49,997 nt of DNA, from the IMG/VR virus record IMGVR_UViG_2737471863_000004, positions 1 to 49,997 of that record; one strand, written 5' to 3'. Under the pieces are notes generated by a model, which saw nothing but the letters and a program-made list of their open reading frames with translations, was not told where the DNA came from and ran no database searches. Below, piece after piece: positions 1-48,989 of the stretch (positions are counted from its first letter, which is position 1; each line of letters begins with the position of its first letter). Origin of the DNA: a virus. Lineage: Duplodnaviria; Heunggongvirae; Uroviricota; Caudoviricetes. A program made the position numbers and the translations under genes.

Positions 1-228
1 ATGAGCTTATTGCCTCGGGAAAACGCACCCCAAAAAAGATATAGACTTCTGAGAATATCAGAAGTGATTAATTTGACTGGCTTACCCAAGTCAACAATTT
101 ATCTAAAGATAAAGAATGATGAATTTCCGAACCAAGTTTCTATCGGTTCTCGTTCTGTTGCATGGGTGGAGCATGAAGTTAATGAATGGATAGAGAAGAA
201 TATTCTCAATAGAAAATTAAACTCCTAA
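1..228 (+). CDS. alpA: AlpA/Vis-family prophage regulatory protein (HTH, excisionase-like)
   Basis: 75 aa; motif RLLRISEVINLTGLPKSTIYLKIKNDEFP...SVAWVEHEVNEWI is typical of AlpA/P4 Vis. Recognised from memory of the family. Confidence 0.85.
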   Translation: MSLLPRENAPQKRYRLLRISEVINLTGLPKSTIYLKIKNDEFPNQVSIGSRSVAWVEHEVNEWIEKNILNRKLNS

Positions 229-245
229 ATTGAGGTGGCAAATAT

Positions 246-1106
246 ATGGTTGACAATGTTTTTAAGAAGAAATTGGCATCAATTAAGAACGAACATGTGT
301 CGGTGTTAGATAGTTACAAAGTAAGATCATTTAAAGAGACTCATAGCGACACGGCCTGTATTGTGCGTATTATTGAAATATATTCACTGAATAAGCTGCG
401 AGCTAAAGGTGAAAAGCTGTATTCACTTACGGGGTTAACAGTACCTGATACGGAAACTGTGGCGAATGAGATCAACCTGCTCCTGAGCCGTTATGCCCAG
501 TTGTGTCGTCAGGAAGAGGAAGAGTTATCTTTCCGGCAGCGTGAAGTGACAAATGCGGAAGTTGCATGGAAAAGCACATTCTCAAAAAACGGCGTCAGTA
601 GCATTGCTGAAGCCAAAACGAATAAAATGGGGCATGCTGAACGAGCGGATGCTGAACGGTATTACCATCTGGCTGTTTCCCGGTTGAATGAACAACATAG
701 TCGATTGAGCACGATCAAGCTTTTGCCGGGAGTACTGGCCGATGAAGGAAACTACATTGGGAAGGGAATCGATAAGCGTTTACTGAATATATTTCCTCAA
801 TCCGGCCAGATCCCTGCTGATTTTATTTCTGTATTTAATGACAGTGACGTTGTCCGTGATATTAAATTTATTACTGATGCACTCAAGTCTTTATCTGATT
901 CCGTGAGTGAAATTATTAGTCGTTGTAGCGTTCCAACTGATCGTTATGTATTAAATAACGGTGGAATGGCAAGAGCTATGGCTTACAGGGAGTACTATCG
1001 AGCAGATAATTATGTATTACGTTCAGTCGTAAGTGACCGGGATTATGTTGAGCATGTAATGAAATACAATCTGGTTACTGAGTACAAAAATAAAATCTTT
1101 TCTTAA
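246..1106 (+). CDS. Hypothetical protein of the satellite left operon; possible capsid-assembly partner of the downstream gene (positional inference only)
   Basis: 286-aa ORF with an ATG start 18 bp after alpA, co-oriented, normal GC; no motif recognised. Confidence 0.55.
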   Translation: MVDNVFKKKLASIKNEHVSVLDSYKVRSFKETHSDTACIVRIIEIYSLNKLRAKGEKLYSLTGLTVPDTETVANEINLLLSRYAQLCRQEEEELSFRQREVTNAEVAWKSTFSKNGVSSIAEAKTNKMGHAERADAERYYHLAVSRLNEQHSRLSTIKLLPGVLADEGNYIGKGIDKRLLNIFPQSGQIPADFISVFNDSDVVRDIKFITDALKSLSDSVSEIISRCSVPTDRYVLNNGGMARAMAYREYYRADNYVLRSVVSDRDYVEHVMKYNLVTEYKNKIFS

Positions 1107-1128
1107 ATACTTAAAAAGGTGAAAAACT

Positions 1129-2133
1129 ATGTATGCCTTCAAAACTGAAAGGCCGGACGCAGCACGTCGTTATCATAATAAATTCGTCACTGGCACTAAC
1201 TATCAGGAAGAATCAAACAGACGCTTTGCATTAAGCGAACCTACTGAAAATATACTGCGTACCTCAATTCTGGAATCCGGGTGGCTTATTAAAAATATTA
1301 CCCTACGTGATGTTAACGCCGTGTCAGGTAATGCCGTCAATATTGGTGCCAGTGAACTGTATACCGGACGTGTGGATGGTGGCCGTTTCCACAAAAAAAT
1401 GGCAATCAATGGTACGGAGTTCTTTCTGACAGAGACGGATACCTGCGCCCGGATCAGCTATTCCGATATGTCTCATATTTACCATACCGGCGTGCCGGAT
1501 GAGTTTGAGAAAACGGTTGAGAGCTTTTTTGCCCAGGCATATGCGCTGGACATGCTGCGGGTCGGTTTCAATGGTGTGTCGATTGCAAATACTACAAACC
1601 CGGAAATCAATAAAAAAGGCGAGGATGTCAATATTGGCTGGCATGCACTGGCGAAAGCCTACGGGAACGGAAAGCAAATCATCTCTGAGCCTGTCACTCT
1701 GGGAGAGACTGGCACCTGGAAAAATATTGATGCTCTGGCCAACCATCTGATTACAGAGCTTATTGCTGAGCAGTTTCGTGAAGATCCTCGTCTGGTTGTA
1801 CTGGTTGGGGCAGAGCTGGCAGCACATCAACGCCTGAAGTTATTTAATGCCGCAGACCGCCCGTCTGATGTGAATGCGGCACAGATGGCTACAAGTTCTG
1901 TTGCTGGCCGCTTTGCGTTTATTCCCCCGTTTATGCCGGGTAAGCGTCTGGCAGTAACGACGCTGGATAATCTGCATATTTACACTCAGGCGATAACACG
2001 CTGGTTTCGTGCTGAGTTTGATGATGAAAGCAGTGAATACGTGCATTCCTACCTGCGCAATGAAGGTTATGCACTCGGTGAACCTGAACTGTACGCGGCT
2101 GTCGATGAGAGCGCCCTGACGTTTGCGGATTGA
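1129..2133 (+). CDS. Probable P2 GpN-family major capsid protein homologue
   Basis: 334 aa; blocks GFNGV, NIGW, EDPRLVVLVGAEL and TTLDNLHIY align with my recollection of P2 GpN (GFNGV, VGW, EDPDLVVIVG, ENLSIY). Recalled, not searched. Confidence 0.5.
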   Translation: MYAFKTERPDAARRYHNKFVTGTNYQEESNRRFALSEPTENILRTSILESGWLIKNITLRDVNAVSGNAVNIGASELYTGRVDGGRFHKKMAINGTEFFLTETDTCARISYSDMSHIYHTGVPDEFEKTVESFFAQAYALDMLRVGFNGVSIANTTNPEINKKGEDVNIGWHALAKAYGNGKQIISEPVTLGETGTWKNIDALANHLITELIAEQFREDPRLVVLVGAELAAHQRLKLFNAADRPSDVNAAQMATSSVAGRFAFIPPFMPGKRLAVTTLDNLHIYTQAITRWFRAEFDDESSEYVHSYLRNEGYALGEPELYAAVDESALTFAD

Positions 2134-2146
2134 CTTAGCGACAGAA

Positions 2147-2175
2147 AGACCCGCTCAGAGGCGGGTCTCGTTTAC
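2147..2175 (+). terminator. Possible intrinsic terminator after the capsid-like gene
   Basis: GC hairpin AGACCCGC-loop-GCGGGTCT followed by a weak T stretch (CGTTTAC). Confidence 0.35.
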
Positions 2176-2324
2176 AGCATCAGGAAAAATGAAGAACTAT
2201 TTTTAAGCAGAGGCTTAAGCATGCCAGCGTTAATTAATCCAGGCAATGATCAGTTTTCGGTTATAAATTTCTTGCCTCACCAGGAATGCGCGGGATATAG
2301 TTTAAAGGTTGCCGCAAAATCGGC

Positions 2325-2600
2325 AGCCGGGCGTAGGAACCCGTGTTATCTGAAGGCGATACTACACGCGCCAGGCGTGTTTTTTTGTGTCGCAGCTTTG
2401 ACTCACCTAAAATTTATGGTGTGGTGGCTGATTGTATTTTTTTATTTTTTACGCCACATCATCAGAATTATGGTAGTCCAGGCGGGGCAGCTTTCGGGCT
2501 GGCCGGTATCCTTCAGAGCCGGTATTCCTACCCCCGTCTGGGCTACCACCCATGAGCGTAGGAACTCCGGTGGTAGCGTTACCCGCTATCTGAAGGAGGT
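2325..2600 (+). promoter_or_regulatory. P4-type immunity region: two direct repeats (seqA/seqC-like) flanking a complementary segment (seqB/CI-RNA-like)
   Basis: GCGTAGGAAC...TATCTGAAGG occurs at about 2331..2356 and 2557..2596. Between them, about 2510..2530 (CCTTCAGA...TTCCTAC) is the reverse complement of both halves. A hairpin plus T7 run at about 2369..2387 follows the first repeat. Confidence 0.45.
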
Positions 2601-2607
2601 TGCCATT

Positions 2608-2811
2608 ATGGCTACAGTCCCTGCTTTATCTCACCCTGAATTTACCTTTGTCTTTCTGGCTGTCCGCCGTACAGACCGTGATGCCCGTCCACGCCCTGTG
2701 CGTGTAATCGCAGAATGCGAGCATGCTGCACGCCTTAAACTTGCCACTGAATTTATCCTGAGCTTTGCTGCCCGTATCCCTGTGAAAAGAGCCGGGGAGG
2801 TGGTTGCATGA
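2608..2811 (+). CDS. Small hypothetical protein, 67 aa
   Basis: ATG at 2608 preceded by strong SD AAGGAGG; the SD lies inside the second immunity repeat. The start is internal to a longer track ORF that I reject. Confidence 0.4.
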   Translation: MATVPALSHPEFTFVFLAVRRTDRDARPRPVRVIAECEHAARLKLATEFILSFAARIPVKRAGEVVA

Positions 2812-3044
2812 AATCCATGAATTTTAAGCAAGGCTGCATATTGAGTGAACAGGGGGAGAGTCGTCTGTTACGGGCGGCACTGGCCAGTGAGTTTCTTGCA
2901 GAGGTCTTGTCCGTGCCCACAGTGAATGGAGCGAGAACTGTTTCAGCGGAAGGCGCTGCGGCTTTAGTGGCCTGTATTGCCGAACAACTGGATGGCGTTG
3001 TTAAGGAAACCAGCACAATTAAGGGAGTGATGCGCGATGAATAA
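2808..3044 (+). CDS. Hypothetical protein, 78 aa, upstream of the primase (position analogous to P4 epsilon)
   Basis: ORF with overlapping stop/start coupling to neighbours in the same operon. Confidence 0.45.
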   Translation: MKSMNFKQGCILSEQGESRLLRAALASEFLAEVLSVPTVNGARTVSAEGAAALVACIAEQLDGVVKETSTIKGVMRDE

Positions 3045-3447
3045 TAATCAAAATTTAAAGGCGCATGCTTTACGAACAGCAGTCTTACGCTACTACATTG
3101 CTGATGCATTCATTTCCTTAATGGTGCGTGTTCATAATGAACCTGTTTATATTGAAGATGGCGAACGAATAGAACTCTCCCACGAAAAAGTGGTGAGTAA
3201 TATTATTTACCATATTGAAATGCCGTGGGTGAATGAGTTTGGGGCTGATGCTGGTTGCATACTGGCCGCAGAGAAACTGGAAAAAATGCTTAAACCAGGC
3301 TTTATGTCAGAAAATATTCGCCTGTCAGTTTTTGGTGTCACAGAGATGCGTGAGGTTTACCGGGATATTATTTTCGGAGCACCTGATGGCGAACTACCCG
3401 AAGGTTTTGAATTTGTGAAGCCGGAAGGTCAGGAGGTGCTGCTGTGA
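3037..3447 (+). CDS. Hypothetical protein, 136 aa
   Basis: ORF whose stop overlaps the primase start (operon coupling). Confidence 0.5.
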   Translation: MNNNQNLKAHALRTAVLRYYIADAFISLMVRVHNEPVYIEDGERIELSHEKVVSNIIYHIEMPWVNEFGADAGCILAAEKLEKMLKPGFMSENIRLSVFGVTEMREVYRDIIFGAPDGELPEGFEFVKPEGQEVLL

Positions 3448-6131
3448 AAACACCGTCTGTATCCACGATTTCCGGAGCTGCAATTGGGCGCTGGCCTTAT
3501 ATCCTGTCAGCATTAGGTATTAAAGTACCGTCCGCAGGACATCATGGGGCTTGCCCTGCCTGTGGTGGAAAAGATCGTTTTCGACTGGACGATAAAGCGG
3601 GGCGAGGGACGTGGTTTTGTAATCAGTGCGGTCATGGCGATGGTCTTGATCTGGTTCGTCTGGTGACAGGAAGAAAGATAAAAGAAGTCGCCGGGATGGT
3701 ATCTGAGGCGCTTGCATTACCAGAAATACAGGAGAAGCCCGCATTGCCAGCCAGGAAAAAGGCCGCAGGAAAAGAAGCGGGCGCGGAGCGATATACCAGA
3801 CTCAGACAGCAGTCCTGCAATGGTGAGCCGGTCTATCTGACAAATAAGGGCTTACACGGGTATTCACTTCCCTTGCTGTCACAGCCTTTGAATCTGGCCG
3901 GAATAACATTTTCCACCGGTTCATTACTGCTGCCTTTGACGGATATTTCCGGGAATATTACTGGTGGCCAGCTTATCAATCCTGACGGGGATAAAAGTCT
4001 GCTGCCCGGTAGCCAGCTGTCTGGCGCATTCATTGCCCTGACCGATATACCCGCTGAAACACCTGAACAGGTGATTATCACTGAGGGTTTTGCCACGGCG
4101 CTTACCGTCAGTCTGCTGACTGAAGGATGGATCGTGGCGGCTGTCGCTGCCACCAATTTACTGAAGGTGACGGAGCAGATCCGAAAACGCTGGCCGGAAA
4201 CTCGGATCATTCTGGCCGGAGATAATGATCTGGCTGACGGCAAAGAAAACACCGGGCGTATTCAGGCAGAGAAAGCCGCCAAAGCGGTGGATGGCTGGGT
4301 AACGCTCCCTCCGGTACGCCATAAGGCTGACTGGGATGATTATCGGCAGGAAGTGGGGAAAGAACGGGCGAGAGATGCCTTTCGTGAAGAAATGACGCTG
4401 CATGGCAAAGGGCAGACCCGTTTACCAGAAGGGTTCCGGCTGACAAAAGAATATTTGTGGTACGACAAGCTGGTTAATAAGTCTGATGGTGATACAGAGA
4501 TACGTAATATCAAAATTTGCAGTCCGTTGCGGGTGACGGCAATCACCAGTGATGCTGATGGAAGTAATTACGGGCGTTTGCTGGAATGGGAAGATACCAA
4601 CGGAAACAGCCGTAAATGGGCAATGCCGATGGAGATGCTGGGCGGTAGCGGGGAAGAACTGCGCCGCGTTCTGCTGGTTAACGGGCTTTCTTACATCAAC
4701 ATTAATGGCATGGCCAGAGCATTCCTGATGGAATATATCTCGCTGTGTAAACCGGACAGAAAAGTAACCTGTGTGAATAAAACTGGCTGGCACGGCGGGG
4801 TTTACGTTCTCCAGGATGAAGTGATAGGGCGCGAAGCCCAGTCAGTCATCTTACAAACATCGAGTGTGCAGGGGCGTGATTTTCGTGTCAGCGGCACATC
4901 AGAGGGCTGGCGTGAAAATATAGGCCGTTATTGCATAAAGAATGCCCGTCTTGCCTTTGCGGTGAGTCTGGCATTTGCTGCCCCCCTTCTGAAACTGGTT
5001 GGTATCGGCGGTGGAGGTTATCACCTCAAAGGGGAATCCACAGACGGTAAAACCACGACGATGAAAGTGGCTGCATCAGTATGTGGTGGAACAGATTTCT
5101 GGCATACGTGGCGGGCGACGGGGAATGCCTTAGAAGGAACGGCGAGCCGCCGCAATGATGCCACGCTGATGCTGGATGAAATCCGGGAGGTTGACGGCAG
5201 GGAGGCGGGGAATATCGCTTATATGCTGGCTAACGGGCAGGGCAAAGCCAGAGCCAGAACAGATGGTTCGGTAAGGGAAACCAACCGCTGGAATCTGTTG
5301 TTTCTGTCTACCGGGGAACTGTCACTGGTAGAGCATGCGGCAAGCGCCGGGGAACGTACGTATGCCGGGGTTGAGGTCAGAATGATCCAGATCCCAAGCG
5401 ATTCGGGCAAGTATGGCGTGTTTGAAGAACTTCATGGCTTCAGTAGCGGGAAAACCCTGGCTGAGCATCTTGAGCAGCACGTAGCGCATTATCATGGTGC
5501 ACCATTCCGCGACTGGCTGTATTGCCTGACCGCTGATCTGCCGGAACTGACCAGTCAGGCGAAAGCCTTATTGAAAGAGTATACCCGAAGGCTGACGCCG
5601 GAAAATGCCGGGAATCAGGTTGGCCGGGCTGTTACCCGTTTTGCTCTGGTTGCGATGGCCGGGGAGCTGGCCACAAAAGCGGGCATCACAGGATGGCCGG
5701 AGGGAGAGGCCTTTCGTGCCGCTCAAAGCTGTCTGGCTGCATGGATGGCTGACCGGGGCCATACAGCTAATCAGGAAGATAAAGCGGCACTTGAACAGGT
5801 TCGGGACTTCATGACGCGTAATCAGTTCAGTCGGTTTGCTGACTGGAATGACGACAGGAACCGGCCTGTTTCAATGATGGGATTCAGAAAAGTCGATAAA
5901 GGAGACAACGTGACAGAGCCGGTTGTGACGTTCTACGTTCTCCCGTCAGGCTGGAAGGAGATCTGTAAGGGATTTGACTCGCGTAAGGTGGCCAGGTTGT
6001 GTGTGGACGCGGGCTGGCTGAAACCCGGTGAAGATGGCCGGACGCAAAACAGCATTCGCCTGCCAGAAATAGGGCTTAAACGTGTGTACCAGTTCAATAC
6101 ACAGGTACTGGGAAGCGCTGAACCTGAGTGA
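3444..6131 (+). CDS. P4 alpha-type primase-helicase
   Basis: 895 aa; N-terminal Cys/His zinc-ribbon (CPACGG...CNQCGH) and Walker A GESTDGKTT. Family recognised from memory. Confidence 0.85.
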   Translation: MKTPSVSTISGAAIGRWPYILSALGIKVPSAGHHGACPACGGKDRFRLDDKAGRGTWFCNQCGHGDGLDLVRLVTGRKIKEVAGMVSEALALPEIQEKPALPARKKAAGKEAGAERYTRLRQQSCNGEPVYLTNKGLHGYSLPLLSQPLNLAGITFSTGSLLLPLTDISGNITGGQLINPDGDKSLLPGSQLSGAFIALTDIPAETPEQVIITEGFATALTVSLLTEGWIVAAVAATNLLKVTEQIRKRWPETRIILAGDNDLADGKENTGRIQAEKAAKAVDGWVTLPPVRHKADWDDYRQEVGKERARDAFREEMTLHGKGQTRLPEGFRLTKEYLWYDKLVNKSDGDTEIRNIKICSPLRVTAITSDADGSNYGRLLEWEDTNGNSRKWAMPMEMLGGSGEELRRVLLVNGLSYININGMARAFLMEYISLCKPDRKVTCVNKTGWHGGVYVLQDEVIGREAQSVILQTSSVQGRDFRVSGTSEGWRENIGRYCIKNARLAFAVSLAFAAPLLKLVGIGGGGYHLKGESTDGKTTTMKVAASVCGGTDFWHTWRATGNALEGTASRRNDATLMLDEIREVDGREAGNIAYMLANGQGKARARTDGSVRETNRWNLLFLSTGELSLVEHAASAGERTYAGVEVRMIQIPSDSGKYGVFEELHGFSSGKTLAEHLEQHVAHYHGAPFRDWLYCLTADLPELTSQAKALLKEYTRRLTPENAGNQVGRAVTRFALVAMAGELATKAGITGWPEGEAFRAAQSCLAAWMADRGHTANQEDKAALEQVRDFMTRNQFSRFADWNDDRNRPVSMMGFRKVDKGDNVTEPVVTFYVLPSGWKEICKGFDSRKVARLCVDAGWLKPGEDGRTQNSIRLPEIGLKRVYQFNTQVLGSAEPE

Positions 6132-6157
6132 TTATCGCGTGAGTCTTATTTTTATGA

Positions 6158-6350
6158 GGTAACACTGGTAACAGAGGTAACACCCGTTACTGATGCGGTT
6201 CTTCAGTGTTACCAGTCAAAAATACTGACTGGTAACAGAGGTAACAAAAAATGGTGTGTTACCACGCGTTACCTCTTGATTTTGCTAACTGGTAACAGAT
6301 TAAATCCTTTTAAATCAATAGCGTTACACGTGTTACCAGTGTTACACGTT
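6158..6350. repeat. Iteron array (putative ori/crr-like primase binding sites)
   Basis: At least nine copies of GGTAACA / TGTTACC in both orientations within about 200 bp just after the primase gene; resembles P4 type I iterons (TGTTCACC). Confidence 0.55.
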
Positions 6351-6413
6351 CAGAACAAGAGGTAGGGATCCAAATCCCTTCTTCTGGCGGGCAACAGTAT
6401 AGGGCACAGAACG

Positions 6414-6686
6414 ATGAAGATGATGAGAATGTACTGCCCCACATGTCAGGCAGTAGCACGGATAGGTAAAACAAACAGGAAACACCCACAACTGTACGAT
6501 GTGTACTGCTATTGCTCTAATGTGGAGTGCGGTCACTCGTTTGTGATGAATGTTGCTTTCTCCCATTCCGTTAGTCCAAGCGCGCTGAACGGGCAGGGAA
6601 GGGTTAAAGAGCTGATTGATGCAATTCCACCCGAGGAACGGGAAAAGGCTTTAAAGTTGCTGCTGGCTGCGCAAAAGAATGGGTAA
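6414..6686 (+). CDS. Ogr/Delta-family zinc-finger late-gene activator
   Basis: Motif MYCPTCQ...CYCSNVECGH matches the CxxC...CxxxxC Ogr/Delta pattern; the true start may be one of the internal Met codons. Confidence 0.75.
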   Translation: MKMMRMYCPTCQAVARIGKTNRKHPQLYDVYCYCSNVECGHSFVMNVAFSHSVSPSALNGQGRVKELIDAIPPEEREKALKLLLAAQKNG

Positions 6687-7366
6687 AGTATGCGTCGGGA
6701 ATGGCCGATCTGTTCCCGGAACCTGAACACAGGATTTCAGTTTATACGGTCATAAAATTATTATTTTTCAACTGGTTATCTTCTTCATGTTTCACAAACC
6801 TTCATAAAATCACACACCTAAAATTAATTATCCATTTAATATCATAGAGTTGCGTATTCAGGCCATAGATTCGACGGACAGTAAAACTGAAAAAAAATGA
6901 ATTTCTTTTCATTCTTTTCAGTTCCTGTATCGCAGTACATCTCGAGGACTGGCACGGACTGGCGGTATCGTTTGTAAAAAATCCAGGCTGAAAATTTTTA
7001 GTGATATGAAAACCGCAGGCGGGTGCGGTGTAGTGCCGTTTTGGTCTGTCGAGCGTATATTTTCCCTTTTTCACGATTGCTGCATATCAAAACGAATGTG
7101 CAGATATCAGGCCGTGTCAAACCGTGAATCGTGGAGCCTAAATGCCCAAACTACGTTTGTAGACCTAGCTAGGGGAAGGTTTCCACATATACTGCTACCT
7201 ATCTTCCAGTCGCTGGTGAGGATCAAGGTAAGCTAACTGGTGAACAAGAAAAGTACTTTCGTATCTTGCGTACTCGTTTTTTTTGATTAGTATGTACAGG
7301 TAGTAACTGGATGGTGAGAATTCGTCATAACTTATCAAATTGCATGATGTTTATAGAGTATGAGTA

Positions 7367-8248
7367 ATGAGTCATAATAAAAAGGAATATGCTAAATTTT
7401 TCCGTCGCCCCATTTTTTCATCCTTAGCAAAAGGTAAGGATATTTCGGATTTATTTGGGAGTTTTGATTCTTACTGCTATGAAACACTGTTTTCAAACAA
7501 TGATAATAATGAACATGAGATTTCACTAAGGGATTTATTTACATCATTATATGATTTTTTGCGTCTGAATTATAGAAATGAATATGTTTATAAGACAGCA
7601 CTTGTCAATAAAATAATATTCGGTAAGCACAGCCCAAAAACAAGTTCGTCGTCCATAGAGTTACCAATTAAAAACTCTATAGTGGATGTTGCGGTGTTTA
7701 ATGGTACGTCTACAGCTTACGAGATTAAGACAGAGTATGATTCACCAAAAAGGTTGATTACTCAAGCCCCTGATTATTTGGATGTTTTTGATAAAGTGTA
7801 TATAGTTACACATCCAGAGTATGCAAGTAAATATTGTGCTTTAAATCTCCCCAGAGTGGGAGTTATGGTTTTGAATAAAAAAGATCAATTGAGTGTCATT
7901 AAGGAGGCAGATTCAAATATTGATTATATTAAAAGTGACAGCTTGTTTTCAGTTCTTAGAAAGGAAGAGTTCTTAGCTATAATAGAAGATTACACTTCAA
8001 CTAAAATAAATATGCCTAATGGATTGGTTTATGAATATTGTAAAGAGATATTCATGCAGATGCCATTAAACATAGCAAATAAATACTTTATCTCTGCTAT
8101 GAAAAAAAGATGTAACGACAAAGTTTTTTTGGATTATATTTATTCTCTTCCAGCATGTTTACGTGTTTTAGGTTATGCAACACCATTATCAAGAAAGCAA
8201 AAAGAATTCATCATGAATTTGATGGATGTAAAAATTAAAATTTGTTGA
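7367..8248 (+). CDS. Cargo protein A, 293 aa, with a putative PD-(D/E)xK nuclease-like core
   Basis: Very AT-rich codon usage versus flanks. Motif IVDVAVFNGTSTAYEIKTE (D107, E119, K121) fits the restriction-endonuclease-like pattern. No signal peptide or TM segment seen. Confidence 0.7.
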   Translation: MSHNKKEYAKFFRRPIFSSLAKGKDISDLFGSFDSYCYETLFSNNDNNEHEISLRDLFTSLYDFLRLNYRNEYVYKTALVNKIIFGKHSPKTSSSSIELPIKNSIVDVAVFNGTSTAYEIKTEYDSPKRLITQAPDYLDVFDKVYIVTHPEYASKYCALNLPRVGVMVLNKKDQLSVIKEADSNIDYIKSDSLFSVLRKEEFLAIIEDYTSTKINMPNGLVYEYCKEIFMQMPLNIANKYFISAMKKRCNDKVFLDYIYSLPACLRVLGYATPLSRKQKEFIMNLMDVKIKIC

Positions 8249-8269: not shown

Positions 8270-9220
8270 ATGTATAGCCCATATTTGTATGCGAGAAGTA
8301 CAGAGTTATTATGCCTTAGGGACCTCGTTGCGAAGGGAGTTAGCCTAAATGGTCTGCTACCAATTTTAGAACCAATTAACGTCAATACGAGAAATTTATT
8401 AACATGTTTAAATGTTTGGAATTCTGACATAATTGTTATCCTTAATCCTTATCAGGAAGATTTTTCTTCACACAATAACGTCTTAACTTTAAATCAAAAT
8501 TTATCAAGTGTATTAACAAATAAAAACAATATCATCTCTGGATATCTTATTCAGCCCAATACAACGATTAATGATATTAATAATTGGTTGAATGCTAACT
8601 TAAATAGACGAGTTGCACTTCTATATGATAATCCATCATTATCCAACTCTGATATTCAGTTGTTGGCGACAAATCAATTGATTAGTTATCATGTTGTTTT
8701 AAATAATAAAATGCTTCCTAATCAGTGCGCTCTTCTTCCTTTGTCGAAGTTAATTATTATTAGCGATAACTTTAGAAAGTTAGCAAAAAATGCTGATTAT
8801 AATGGGCCGGAACTTTTCACGCACGCACATCAATTCGTGGGACAAAATTACTTAGGATTTGGCGATTATACAATTACTGGCCAGGTACTAGATCTTGGAG
8901 GTGGTCAACCTTCTGCTGTTGCCGCACATTTGGTGTTCAAGAATTTACAAGCGAATACAGTTTGGATTCGTCATTTTGTATCAAGCAACACGCAACGAGG
9001 AAGTTCAAATGTTACTGCAAAATTTTTAGATGTTTCAGATCAAATTACAAATCTTGTTCCCCAACATCCAACCCAGTTTGGCAGCAACATTGGTCTTAAC
9101 TATTATTATTACAATAGTCAACCAACTGTAAGGCATTTCCCTGGGTTGCCAAAAAACAAACAGTATCAAATTACTCACCATATTTGTTTCATGCTGGATT
9201 TAATAGCAGGTCGTATTTAA
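8270..9220 (+). CDS. Cargo protein B, 316 aa, function unknown
   Basis: AGGAG RBS 11 nt upstream; 21 bp after cargo A, so likely an operon. AT-rich; no motif recognised. Its 3' end overlaps the integrase 3' end by 21 bp, convergently. Confidence 0.7.
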   Translation: MYSPYLYARSTELLCLRDLVAKGVSLNGLLPILEPINVNTRNLLTCLNVWNSDIIVILNPYQEDFSSHNNVLTLNQNLSSVLTNKNNIISGYLIQPNTTINDINNWLNANLNRRVALLYDNPSLSNSDIQLLATNQLISYHVVLNNKMLPNQCALLPLSKLIIISDNFRKLAKNADYNGPELFTHAHQFVGQNYLGFGDYTITGQVLDLGGGQPSAVAAHLVFKNLQANTVWIRHFVSSNTQRGSSNVTAKFLDVSDQITNLVPQHPTQFGSNIGLNYYYYNSQPTVRHFPGLPKNKQYQITHHICFMLDLIAGRI

Positions 9221-10423
9221 TAAGCTAGCGTACCATTCCATCATTACTTGTCGATCTTTAATATATTGCGCATGATTGTAAGTACCTCGAATAGAGTTCT
9301 TATCAACATGCGCAAGCTGCATTTCAATCCAGGCACTTTCAAACCCATGCTCATGCAAGATGGTGCTCATGGTATGCCTGAAACCGTGACCCGTTAACCG
9401 ACCGTGATAACCCAGTAGTTTTATCACTTTGTTGATGCTGGCTTCGCTCATTGGTTTCCTGACGTCATTTCGGCCAGGGAAAACGAGGCTGTAATTCCCT
9501 GTTATTTCTTGCAGCTTTTTCAGGATATTGATCGCCTGAGTTGATAACGGAACCAGATGGGGGCGGCGTTTCTTCATCCGTTCTTTGGGGATCTCCCATA
9601 AGGCATTATCTAAATCAAACTCAGCCCATTCCGCTGCACGTAGTTCAATTGTTCGCACGCCTGTTAGCATCAACAGCTGCGTGGCGTATTTGGTAACTAA
9701 ACTGCCCTGATAGTTATCCAGAGCATTAACGAACTCGGGCAACTCGCTTTCAGTCAGGAACGGGAAGTGTTGGGTTTTAGGTTTGTTGAGTGCGATAGCT
9801 AAATCGGGTGCAAAATTATACTTTGCTCTACCAGTGGCAACAGCATAACGAAGCACTTCACCACAGCGGCGGCGGATCTTACTGGTTTGCTCTAGCGCAC
9901 CTCTTTTCTCTATTTTTTGCAGGACGGTTAGCAGTTCTAATGGTTCAATCTGCTCAATTGGGCGCTGGCCGATAAAAGGAAAAATATCCTTTTCCATACA
10001 ATTGAGAACCTCTTTTGCATAACCCTCTGACCAGGTGGCTTTTTTCGATGAGTGCCATTCTCTGGCCACAGACTCAAAGCTGTTCTCATGCGCGAACTGC
10101 AAAGCAATCTTATCTGCTTTTCTGGCTTCACTTGGGTTTATCCCTTTGGCTAACATCGAACGCGCTTCATCACGTTTGGTACGTGCCTGTGCCAACGACA
10201 CATCGCCATATACGCCAAAGGAAATCATCTTAGGCTTACCTGCAAAGCGATAGCGAAAACGCCAGCCTTTACTGCCCGCTGTGTCGATCAGGAGTGATAG
10301 CCCCATACCATCGTTAAGCGTATAGGGTTTGTCCTTCGGTTTTGCTCTTTTTATTTGGATGTCAGATAGCAGCATGTGTATAGAAAAAAGATCGAACTCA
10401 GTTATACACAATGTTATACGCAA
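9200..10423 (-). CDS. Tyrosine integrase, IntS/P4 family, of the satellite
   Basis: N-terminal DKPYTLNDGMGLSL arm-binding motif and C-terminal HGFRH...RGTYNHAQY catalytic motifs; clear similarity across the length to IntS at 47596..48753. The likely true start is the internal Met at about 10375. Confidence 0.9.
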   Translation of the reverse strand: MRITLCITEFDLFSIHMLLSDIQIKRAKPKDKPYTLNDGMGLSLLIDTAGSKGWRFRYRFAGKPKMISFGVYGDVSLAQARTKRDEARSMLAKGINPSEARKADKIALQFAHENSFESVAREWHSSKKATWSEGYAKEVLNCMEKDIFPFIGQRPIEQIEPLELLTVLQKIEKRGALEQTSKIRRRCGEVLRYAVATGRAKYNFAPDLAIALNKPKTQHFPFLTESELPEFVNALDNYQGSLVTKYATQLLMLTGVRTIELRAAEWAEFDLDNALWEIPKERMKKRRPHLVPLSTQAINILKKLQEITGNYSLVFPGRNDVRKPMSEASINKVIKLLGYHGRLTGHGFRHTMSTILHEHGFESAWIEMQLAHVDKNSIRGTYNHAQYIKDRQVMMEWYASLLNTTCY

Positions 10424-10534: not shown

Positions 10535-10550
10535 ATGGTGTCCCCTGCAG
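10535..10550. repeat. att core copy (ATGGTGTCCCCTGCAG) at the junction between the two elements
   Basis: Exact 16-bp identity to 48914..48929, the 3' end of argW plus 1 nt. It lies between torI and the satellite integrase. Confidence 0.7.
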
Positions 10551-12888: not shown

Positions 12889-13364
12889 TTTTGCTCACCT
12901 CCCTGTTCTTCCAGAAAAATACGCATAGCCTCAAGCATCTCTTTGGTGTCATACGGTGACAACTTGTCACGCAGGATGTATTCAATGCTGTTAATGAACT
13001 TGCGGATTGCTTTGCGTTCAATTTCAGCCAGGAAAGCATCGGTGGCTGGGGTGTCTGATTGCAGAGACTTTGCGCGATAGTCATTCCACCCTCTTGCATA
13101 CATGGGATTAACTAGCACTCCATCTTTTACGCAATATGCCTGCCCTCCACGGTTGATAAACTTGATTTCGTCCATAGCGCCAGACTTCAGCCCCGCATTC
13201 TCCGCTGCCAGCGCCGCGCACTTGGCCTCTGCTTCAGCAAATTTACGCACCAGATATTCAGCGTTTGTTTCGTTAACCTTTAAATCACATGGGATGCATT
13301 TACCTTTCAGAAAACCATCCATCTCAATTAGTGACATTTGTTTCATTTCTTCCCACTCCGCCAC
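12885..13364 (-). CDS. Hypothetical early-left protein, 159 aa
   Basis: ORF whose start overlaps the upstream stop. Confidence 0.5.
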
Positions 13365-47595: not shown

Positions 47596-48753
47596 TCACT
47601 CCACCTTTTCATCAAGCCAGTCCGCCCACCACTGCATCATTTCTCTGCGCTTATCGAGATACTGTGCATGGTTGTAAATCCCACGCACAGATCCGCCGTT
47701 GGCATGTGCCAGTTGCACTTCAATGGCGTCGGCAGGCCATTCGTGCTCGTTCATAATCGTGCTGAATTCATGCCTGAATCCGTGACCGCTTTCCAGCCCC
47801 TCATAGCCGATTTGTTTGATCACAAGTAGCACCGCGTTCTCGCAGATTGGCTTCTTCTTATCGTTGCGCCCGGCAAAAACAAACTCTGATACTGGTTTGG
47901 TGATTGAGCTTAGCGTAGTGAGAAGTTCAACTACCTGGTCTGACATAGGAACCACATGAATTTTGCGTCCCTTCATCACATTGGCGTCGATGGTGATAAT
48001 ACTGTTTTCAAAATCGACGTTCTTCCATTGCATGGAACGAAGCTCTTTCGTTCTTAGGGCTGTGTAGCGTAAAACTTTGGTCGCAATGAGCGATACGATG
48101 CTTCCTGAAAATGTTGCCAGTGCTTTGTTGAATGCCGGGATCTGGTCTGCAGGAAGAAACGGGAAGTTCTTCTTGCGGTATCCCTTCATGGCGTCAGCAA
48201 GGTCAGGTGCAGGGTTATATTTAGCCCTGCCGGTGACAATAGCGTAACGGAAAACCTCGCCGCATCTTCTGCGGGCTTTATTGGCTCGCTCCATTGCACC
48301 GCGATCTTCAAATCTGCGGATTACTTCAAGAAGTTGCATCGGCTCAATATCCTGAATTTCAAGGCCGCCGATGATAGGTAAAATGTCGTCATCAAACATT
48401 TTTGCAAGTTCAGTCGCATACCCTACTGACCATACTTGCTTCTTGTGCTCGTACCATTCTTTGTAAATCGCACTAAAGGAATTGTTGTTAGACGAAGCCT
48501 TTTTCGCCTTTACCGGATCGATGCCAACCGAGATGTCTTTCTTCGCGGTCCATGCTTTATCTCTTGCCTCCTGCAAAGTCATTAGCGGATATTTTCCTAC
48601 GGTCAGTATTTTTTCCTTACCGTCAATCTTGTAGCGAAGCTGCCATACCTTTTTCCCTGATACAGGGACATAAAGATACAGGCCATTACCATCGAGAAGG
48701 CGGTATGGTTTTTCTTTCGGCTTTGCTGCTTCAATCTGCTTAACGGTGAGCAT
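47596..48753 (-). CDS. intS: Integrase IntS (tyrosine recombinase, argW-specific)
   Basis: From the internal Met MLTVKQIEAAKPKEKPYRLLDGNGLYLYV..., near-identical to E. coli K-12 IntS as recalled; adjacent to argW. Confidence 0.9.
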   Translation of the reverse strand: MLTVKQIEAAKPKEKPYRLLDGNGLYLYVPVSGKKVWQLRYKIDGKEKILTVGKYPLMTLQEARDKAWTAKKDISVGIDPVKAKKASSNNNSFSAIYKEWYEHKKQVWSVGYATELAKMFDDDILPIIGGLEIQDIEPMQLLEVIRRFEDRGAMERANKARRRCGEVFRYAIVTGRAKYNPAPDLADAMKGYRKKNFPFLPADQIPAFNKALATFSGSIVSLIATKVLRYTALRTKELRSMQWKNVDFENSIITIDANVMKGRKIHVVPMSDQVVELLTTLSSITKPVSEFVFAGRNDKKKPICENAVLLVIKQIGYEGLESGHGFRHEFSTIMNEHEWPADAIEVQLAHANGGSVRGIYNHAQYLDKRREMMQWWADWLDEKVE

Positions 48754-48914
48754 GGGTAAAAATCCGGTGGGTAAAATTATTTTATCCACTTTTTACCCGT
48801 CATGGTGTGCGGCTGTCAACGATCTGACGCGAACCATGACGAACCGTGAATATACGGAAGGCTTGATATTCAGGGGATTTTGCGGACTGGTGCGGATGGG
48901 AGCGAACTGATAAA

Positions 48915-48989
48915 TGGTGTCCCCTGCAGGAATCGAACCTGCAATTAGCCCTTAGGAGGGGCTCGTTATATCCATTTAACTAAGAGGAC
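48915..48989 (-). tRNA. argW: tRNA-Arg (anticodon CCU), argW
   Basis: Reverse complement GTCCTCTTAGTTAAATGGATATAACGAGCCCCTCCTAAGGGCTAATTGCAGGTTCGATTCCTGCAGGGGACACCA folds as a cloverleaf with anticodon loop CUCCUAA and a CCA end; its 3' end carries the att core. Confidence 0.9.

Follow-up and report, generated by a model that had tools for sequence, protein, structure and literature searches.

Features of the locus

The stretch of DNA analysed, called the window below, is 49,997 nucleotides long and derives from an E. coli chromosome. Ahead of a primase operon it carries a sigma-70 type promoter, a leader RNA with an intrinsic terminator, a second structured RNA and a small Icd/Kil-like ORF, with a longer ORF running through all of them (Table 1).

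Table 1. Positions in the window of the RNA features, repeats and reading frames
Feature	Position	Strand	Detail and basis
Eta-like long ORF, 196 aa	2221–2811	+	ORF list; P4 eta homology
PLE-like sigma-70 promoter	2272–2301	+	TTGCCT 2272–2277, 18-nt spacer, TATAGT 2296–2301; promoter scan
IsrK/seqA-type leader RNA	2308–2386	+	Rfam RF01394; fold; terminator scan
GCGTAGGAAC repeat	2331–2340, 2556–2565	+	sequence
TATCTGAAGG repeat	2347–2356, 2587–2596	+	sequence
t1-like intrinsic terminator	2364–2386	+	hairpin ACACGC-GCCAG-GCGTGT 2364–2380, T run to 2386
CI/C4-type antisense RNA, carrying seqB	2466–2553	+	Rfam RF01695
Reverse complements of both repeat halves	2510–2517, 2525–2531		CCTTCAGA and TTCCTAC; inverted-repeat finder
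Conserved hairpin GCUACCACC/GGUGGUAGC	2542–2577	+	arms 2542–2550/2569–2577; inverted repeat
seqC-type target	2556–2599	+	b2 GUAGGAA 2558–2564; a2 UCUGAAGG 2589–2596 plus A2597
Icd/Kil-like ORF, 67 aa	2608–2811	+	NCBIfam NF033153; P4 kil homology
Operon under predicted control	2808–6131	+	orf78 2808–3044; orf136 3037–3447; primase/DUF927 replication protein 3444–6131

The two 10-mers which make up the direct repeat occur exactly twice each in the window, at the listed sites only. Chance would be expected to yield 0.04 and 0.07 matches, respectively, and two or more were seen in none of 100 shuffles; on these figures a chance origin of the repeats was ruled out, the expectation in 50 kb being below 0.1 for each 10-mer. 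An earlier note on this DNA had described the direct repeat, placing its second copy from 2557, one nucleotide beyond the actual start, and had described a segment between the copies as the reverse complement of both halves. The latter proved to be exact.

The host element

The module resides in an E. coli prophage, a satellite of the P4 family, whose integration site is tRNA-Arg (argW). At least 80% of nucleotides 1–7000 of the window is present in 446 of 5,426 complete E. coli genomes, and identity is 99% or more in 421 of the matching records. In E. coli D6 the element, which extends from alpA to the integrase over about 10.4 kb, adjoins tRNA-Arg, and the satellite stands alone there. Its products include an AlpA protein (Pfam; 46% identity to P4 Vis), an Ogr/Delta zinc finger protein, an integrase, and a primase with an alpha-like N-terminus. 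When the element was screened by tblastn with the sid/delta/psu/epsilon segment of P4, there was no match to sid, psu or epsilon, and only a weak Ogr/delta match was returned. P4-like satellites have been defined by seven components: int, psu, delta, sid, alpA, epsilon and alpha (PMC10085698); of these psu, sid and epsilon were not found here. Judged by its gene content the element is P4-related in regulation and replication, yet non-canonical under the seven-component definition. Its life cycle could be different from that of P4, since sid, psu and epsilon are lacking, a P2-family capsid gene is present, and the replication protein has DUF927 in its C-terminal part.

The capsid gene is full-length (1129–2133, + strand) and follows an ORF of 286 amino acids (246–1106, + strand). 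Its product belongs to the P2 family of major capsid proteins (PF05125, 1e-66), showing about 25% identity to GpN of P2/Wphi and at best 49%, to a protein of phage ESSI2_ev015. The 286-residue product, considered as a P2 GpO-like scaffold, had no match in Pfam, PHROGs, NCBIfam or, by tblastn, phage records. Its own coat protein may serve the element to build or remodel capsids, in place of an external scaffold of the Sid type. The position of the P4 defence hotspot, between the ogr/delta-like gene and the integrase, is occupied by a pair of genes of the sce7726 and sce7725 families (7367–8248 and 8270–9220, + strand), the first of which gave a PADLOC candidate match (PDLC02989 'cll', 1e-18).

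A 16-bp direct repeat (ATGGTGTCCCCTGCAG) at 10535–10550 and 48914–48929 corresponds to the 3' end of tRNA-Arg and marks a tandem integration at argW. The tRNA-Arg(CCT) gene itself (48915–48989) and two integrase genes (9200–10375 and 47596–48789) are on the minus strand. Behind the satellite, which occupies the window from 1 to about 10550, lies a P22-like, CUS-3-like prophage of about 38 kb; its head genes share about 95% identity with their counterparts in CUS-3 and vB_EcoP-720R6.

The leader RNA and its terminator

Immunity of P4 depends on the CI RNA (seqB), on the seqA and seqC targets in the leader transcribed from PLE, on the terminators t1, t4 and timm, and on the nested genes kil and eta. 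Alignment with P4 showed the promoter hexamers and their spacing to be identical in the two. Transcription is predicted to start near G2308, the nucleotide at which the Rfam isrK model begins. This model (RF01394) matched 2308–2385 with 69.5 bits against a gathering score of 50. The leader folds into two stems (2308–2314/2321–2327 and 2328–2331/2340–2343), with target b1 (GUAGGAA, 2333–2339) in the loop of the second and target a1 (UCUGAAGG, 2349–2356) in the linker. The c4-a1b1 target model (RF03163) reached 43.8 bits at 2295–2347 against a threshold of 46.7, and P4 likewise fell short with 44.1 bits; the region of this near-match is spanned by the isrK model.

The hairpin and T run that the earlier note had seen behind the first repeat are present, and form the sole terminator-like site revealed by a scan of 2100–2900. 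The stem has 6 bp and is GC-rich. No promoter-like site was found by the promoter scan between this terminator and the downstream RNA, which is consistent with processing of the latter from a PLE-type transcript. The sequence TTGACT (2398–2403) was considered as a second promoter and rejected, being without a -10 partner and not conserved. A 4-bp anti-terminator (GGCG, 2355–2358/CGCC, 2369–2372) was also dropped; its columns are invariant, and so beyond the reach of covariation analysis. The spacer just 5' of the CI RNA contains a hairpin (2411–2469) with arms at approximately 2415–2426 and 2452–2463 and a T-rich loop. Since two related loci (L009 and L003) carry hairpins of differing sequence at the equivalent position, this suggests a conserved structural element.

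The antisense RNA

The second RNA matched the full length (1–87) of the C4 model (RF01695) with 81.1 bits, the gathering score being 45; P4 CI scores 74.9 bits with this model. In a search with all Rfam families, C4 and isrK were the only non-tRNA matches above threshold in the whole window. P4, scanned likewise, gave C4, isrK and c4-a1b1 matches in identical order and with similar scores. The RNA folds with a 17-bp closing stem (2471–2487/2532–2548) and two hairpins (2488–2492/2497–2501 and 2502–2506/2519–2523). In isolation its minimum free energy is -47.8 kcal/mol (z = -5.3). RNA folding and a covariance-model search had been proposed in the earlier note as checks of its P4 CI-type reading, and that reading is supported. 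That note also expected a small stable RNA of roughly 70 nt; a C4-type RNA is indeed predicted, with a size of about 80–88 nt.

Segment a' (CCUUCAGA, 2510–2517), of 8 nt, is in the loop of hairpin 2, and segment b' (UUCCUAC, 2525–2531), of 7 nt, is in an 8-nt unpaired junction. Both have exact complements upstream (2349–2356 and 2333–2339) and downstream (2589–2596 and 2558–2564). A scan of the window for the bipartite target GTAGGAA...TCTGAAGG on the plus strand returned seqA and seqC only. The search for other targets of the RNA in the window, the neighbouring P22-like prophage included, gave one weak site with two mismatches, at 13304–13356 on the minus strand. This near-match (GTGGGAA, 38 nt, TCTGAAAG; one mismatch per half) lies inside the P22-like prophage and is probably due to chance.

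The seqC target, the Icd/Kil-like ORF and the primase operon

The downstream target overlaps the Shine-Dalgarno (SD) sequence AGGAGG (2594–2599) of the Icd/Kil-like ORF, which starts with ATG at 2608. Pairing with seqC extends to 2596, or to 2597 with one extra U-A pair, and covers the 5' half of the SD. The claim that the second repeat contains the SD thus applies to that half and not to all of GAAGGAGG. The 67-residue product matched the Icd-like family NF033153 with 68.1 bits (cut-off 25) and shows 52.5% identity to the P4 kil region. The ORF is the first translated gene 3' of the RNA and stands at the head of the primase operon. In the latter, the starts and stops of the ORFs overlap, all ORFs are intact, and the operon is translationally coupled. 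The N-terminus of the primase is 38% identical to P4 alpha.

A further hairpin (2542–2577) has its 5' arm in common with the 3' arm of the CI closing stem, with which it may compete, and holds b2 in its loop. It may be the counterpart of t4, the atypical terminator of P4, or an alternative structure.

Covariation among related loci

Related loci were collected from species-representative genomes and viral contigs by strict scans in which only the scaffold around a' and b' was fixed. The genomes that yielded loci were those of Serratia, Kosakonia, Edwardsiella, Citrobacter, Erwinia, Pantoea, Enterobacter and others, and 38 distinct loci were aligned. In the upstream helices, 98.7% of cells were paired for a1-a', with 6 of 8 pairs changed on both sides, and 100% for b1-b', with 2 of 7 so changed. 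The values for the downstream helices were 96.7% and 6 of 8 (a'-a2), and 100% and 2 of 7 (b'-b2). When the partners were slid by 1–3 columns as a control, only 29–47% of cells paired, and covariation as strong as that observed arose in no shuffle. Among the same 38 loci the structural stems covary too: compensatory changes affect 6 of 7 pairs of the first leader stem, 6 of the 17 pairs of the closing stem (100% paired), 2 pairs of hairpin 1, and 5 of the 9 pairs of the hairpin at 2542–2577 (98.8% of cells paired). The terminator stem is kept in all 38, with one compensatory pair.

A looser scan yielded 125 distinct regions, one random match (L155) being left out. These contain 41 a'/b' combinations, built from 29 a' and 6 b' variants. 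Full pairing, G-U included, was found in 122 of the 125 loci for b1, 115 for a1, 124 for b2 and 120 for a2.

Among the related loci (L003–L154; for example L071, L113, L018 and L004), a' and b' variants are combined in different ways. Thus, CCTTCAGA is found with TTCCTAC or TTTCCAC, and CCGTTAGA with three different b' variants. Such mixing suggests that the two specificity segments are exchanged as modules, with seqA and seqC apparently changing in step each time.

We would put forward tentatively, as a possibility somewhat short of an even chance, that the locus is one allele of a combinatorial immunity code with at least 41 types among the 125 loci, matched at seqA, seqB and seqC while the eta frame is kept. 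If this is true, and undescribed in surveys of P4-like satellites, it would provide a family-wide view of how RNA immunity becomes diverse while constrained at both the RNA and the protein level.

That the prophage is cryptic and decaying, and the module a relic which has lost its activity and regulates nothing, is very unlikely. The element does lack sid, psu and epsilon, and in some strains adjoins another integrase remnant; against this, all the pairings are exact, the operon ORFs are intact and translationally coupled, the element is found intact in hundreds of complete E. coli genomes, with at least 99% identity in more than 400, and three-site complementarity is kept in related loci across many species.

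The overlapping reading frame

The long ORF begins 5' of the promoter and continues, in the kil frame, through seqA, the terminator, the CI RNA and seqC, so that the Icd/Kil-like ORF is nested in frame within it. It shows 49% identity to the P4 eta frame. In P4, eta and kil are reportedly nested in this way, eta being translated only from an upstream late promoter, and the arrangement found here matches it. Of 130 distinct loci, 127 have exactly one stop-free frame across a stretch of 246–336 nt; where a kil start was found (117 loci), this frame is that of kil in 110. Between seqA and the CI RNA the spacing varies over 110–198 nt, and in 125 of 128 loci it is divisible by three. This conserved open frame argues that translation through the RNA module is under selection.

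Protein families have been drawn over the same stretch. Since the eta-like frame is open through the module, the Pfam family Phage_ASH (PF10554; 114 bits) lies exactly on it, at amino acids 26–141 or nucleotides 2296–2643; two PHROG 'transcriptional repressor' families overlie it as well. In the one RefSeq (PGAP) record inspected, that of E. coli D6, 2221–2811 is a single "Icd-like" CDS and no RNA feature is given. These families and the RefSeq CDS are legacies of the old annotation of a P4 'cI/ash gene product'.

Taken at face value, the PGAP call, the PF10554 match, the frame open in 127 of 130 loci and the spacers of multiples of three would fit a region which is solely the coding sequence of a 196-residue Ash/Icd-like protein, the repeats being features at the protein level. 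As the sole explanation this is very unlikely, and covariation already contradicts it: variable positions keep Watson-Crick or G-U pairing among the three sites and in the stems, which coding does not predict. Moreover, the SD and ATG of the 67-residue ORF, the promoter and the intrinsic terminator are all inside the long ORF. The RNA and protein layers overlap and are not mutually exclusive.

Proposed mechanism

All those defining features of the C4/CI family and of P4-type immunity that were open to testing are present in the module. The earlier note's reading of the repeats as a P4 CI-type pattern is supported by C4 and isrK matches above their gathering scores, obtained in the same order from P4; by the P4 alignment, in which the flanks are conserved and the changes in seqA, seqB and seqC are compensatory; and by the covariation of the RNA segments with both target sets, in 38 and then in 125 distinct loci. 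Nucleotides 2272–2611 very probably constitute the RNA-based immunity module of a P4-family satellite prophage, operating by a P4-type mechanism. Homology, RNA structure, complementarity, three-site covariation and the conserved reading frame support this directly, while processing, termination, the involvement of Rho and the immunity phenotype are extrapolated from work on P4, P1 and Gifsy-1.

Transcription from the PLE-like promoter would produce a leader containing seqA, and a share of the transcripts would stop at the intrinsic terminator. Read-through transcripts would contain the tRNA-like, very stable C4/CI RNA, which by analogy would then be cut out. The CI RNA of P4 is processed by RNase P and PNPase, and the same cutting is assumed here. 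Segments a' and b' would pair with seqA upstream and with seqC downstream. Pairing with seqA, if it acts as in P4, would lead to more termination at the adjacent terminator and hence to autoregulation of the RNA. Pairing with seqC would cover half of the SD, and therefore the Icd/Kil-like ORF would not be translated and the transcript would end before the primase operon. The prophage and an incoming element of the same type would be kept non-replicating. Late transcripts that begin further upstream would avoid the block, because the eta-like ORF would be translated through the whole module. The P4 mechanism has been set out in the literature, where IsrK is equated with seqA and C4 with the CI RNA (PMC4825925, PMC3632133), and P4-like prophages are described as carrying both IsrK- and C4-type RNAs (PMC3632133; PMC4825925).

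The same parts might be used for activation of the IsrK type, which we regard as unlikely and which could coexist with the P4-type model. Here the short terminated seqA RNA (2308–2386) in trans, or seqA in cis, would act as an anti-antisense, binding seqB and freeing the SD at seqC, and the module would mainly control induction and not the maintenance of repression. The leader does match the isrK family with 69.5 bits, the short IsrK of Gifsy-1 activates translation of its read-through mRNA (PMC4825925), and IsrK-like elements of P4-like prophages were required in a TraDIS screen of S. Typhi (PMC3632133). The minimum free energy fold of the whole leader (2308–2612) pairs seqA with seqB in cis (z = -4.6), although such a fold of a 305-nt RNA is weak evidence. 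What follows the module is a P4-type kil and primase operon and not an orf45-anrP antiterminator cassette, and in P4 genetics CI is the repressor and seqA the target which raises termination at t1 (PMC4825925). Both points speak against activation of the IsrK type.

Comparison with known systems

The order of the parts is that of P4: a promoter, seqA in a hairpin loop and linker, an intrinsic terminator, a C4-fold RNA, seqC at the SD of kil, and a primase operon. The aligned DNA is 71% identical, with promoter hexamers, leader stems, terminator and RNA scaffold conserved; kil and eta are homologous, and an eta-type frame is open through the RNA. The two differ in their recognition cores, which are GUAGGAA/UUCCUAC and UCUGAAGG/CCUUCAGA here and GUGAGAA/UUCUCAC and UUCACAGG/CCUGUGAA in P4. 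In addition, the spacer from t1 to the RNA is 27 nt shorter here, the replication protein is of the DUF927 type, a P2-family capsid gene is present, and sid, psu and epsilon are missing. Calculated duplex energies of the RNA with its own targets were -27.6 (seqA) and -31.3 (seqC) kcal/mol, compared with -11.1 and -15.6 kcal/mol, respectively, with those of P4, so that specific recognition is predicted. Since the recognition segments differ at seqA, seqB and seqC together, the element is predicted to be heteroimmune to P4 and to represent a distinct immunity allele. The retronphage phiR73 is reported to be such a P4-like heteroimmune element, with the same RNA scheme and altered specificity determinants, and the situation proposed for the present element would be alike.

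In the immI region of phages P1 and P7, the C4 antisense RNA has a1/b1 and a2/b2 targets and controls the icd-ant operon, a mechanism that is well established for P1. Shared with the module described here are the Rfam family (RF01695), the loop segments a' and b', targets both upstream and downstream, and the overlap of the downstream target with the ribosome binding site of an Icd-family gene. P1 differs in that the antirepressor Ant is controlled and the main repressor is the C1 protein, whereas here no ant follows and control would fall on a primase/replication operon.

IsrK/STnc1160 of Salmonella Gifsy-1 is matched above threshold by way of the isrK model, and as in Gifsy-1 short terminated and read-through forms are expected, with a C4-like processed RNA downstream. 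In Gifsy-1 the short IsrK activates translation of orf45-anrP (antiterminator) and promotes induction, whereas other genes lie downstream here and the sign of regulation is expected, by analogy, to be repressive, through CI. Hfq binding and the trans-activation of its own read-through mRNA are known for isrK of Gifsy-1 only (PMC4825925). The cis fold of the unprocessed leader (2308–2612) resembles the inactive and active structures of the isrK read-through mRNA (PMC4825925).

Phage phiKO2 and related Klebsiella phages share the RNA region, located beside an Icd-like gene, at 80–82% identity over part of the module (blastn). They differ in being linear plasmid-prophages with another downstream operon, and the coverage is partial only. 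In N15 and phiKO2, the anti-repressor locus is controlled by a processed small RNA. Parts of the module, at about 68–82% identity, were found in phiKO2, 48ST307, KpLi5, Stx1a/Stx2a-converting phages, RCS47 and a Vibrio phage; that is, in linear plasmid-prophages, next to ant genes in Stx phages, in a P1-like phage and in a Vibrio phage. A C4-type switch is therefore common to very different temperate elements.

Significance

Descriptions of this RNA switch in P4, P1 and Gifsy-1 go back to the 1990s, and it is recognised by curated RNA models. The present system is of this already known kind, since the testable features of C4/CI RNAs and of P4 are all found and heteroimmune P4 relatives (phiR73) have reportedly been described; all that sets it apart from P4 is that its recognition sequences form a matched set of their own. 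Only two parts might go beyond the literature examined, namely the three-site covariation across the family and the conservation of the overlapping frame. Existing annotation of the locus misleads, in that a CDS and protein families have been placed over a stretch which is chiefly an RNA module (promoter, seqA, terminator, CI RNA and seqC). P4-type RNA immunity combined with a non-canonical gene set points to a wider range of elements using the switch. P4-family satellites are found in a large share of enterobacterial genomes, and the recognition sequences offer a simple means of typing their immunity groups.
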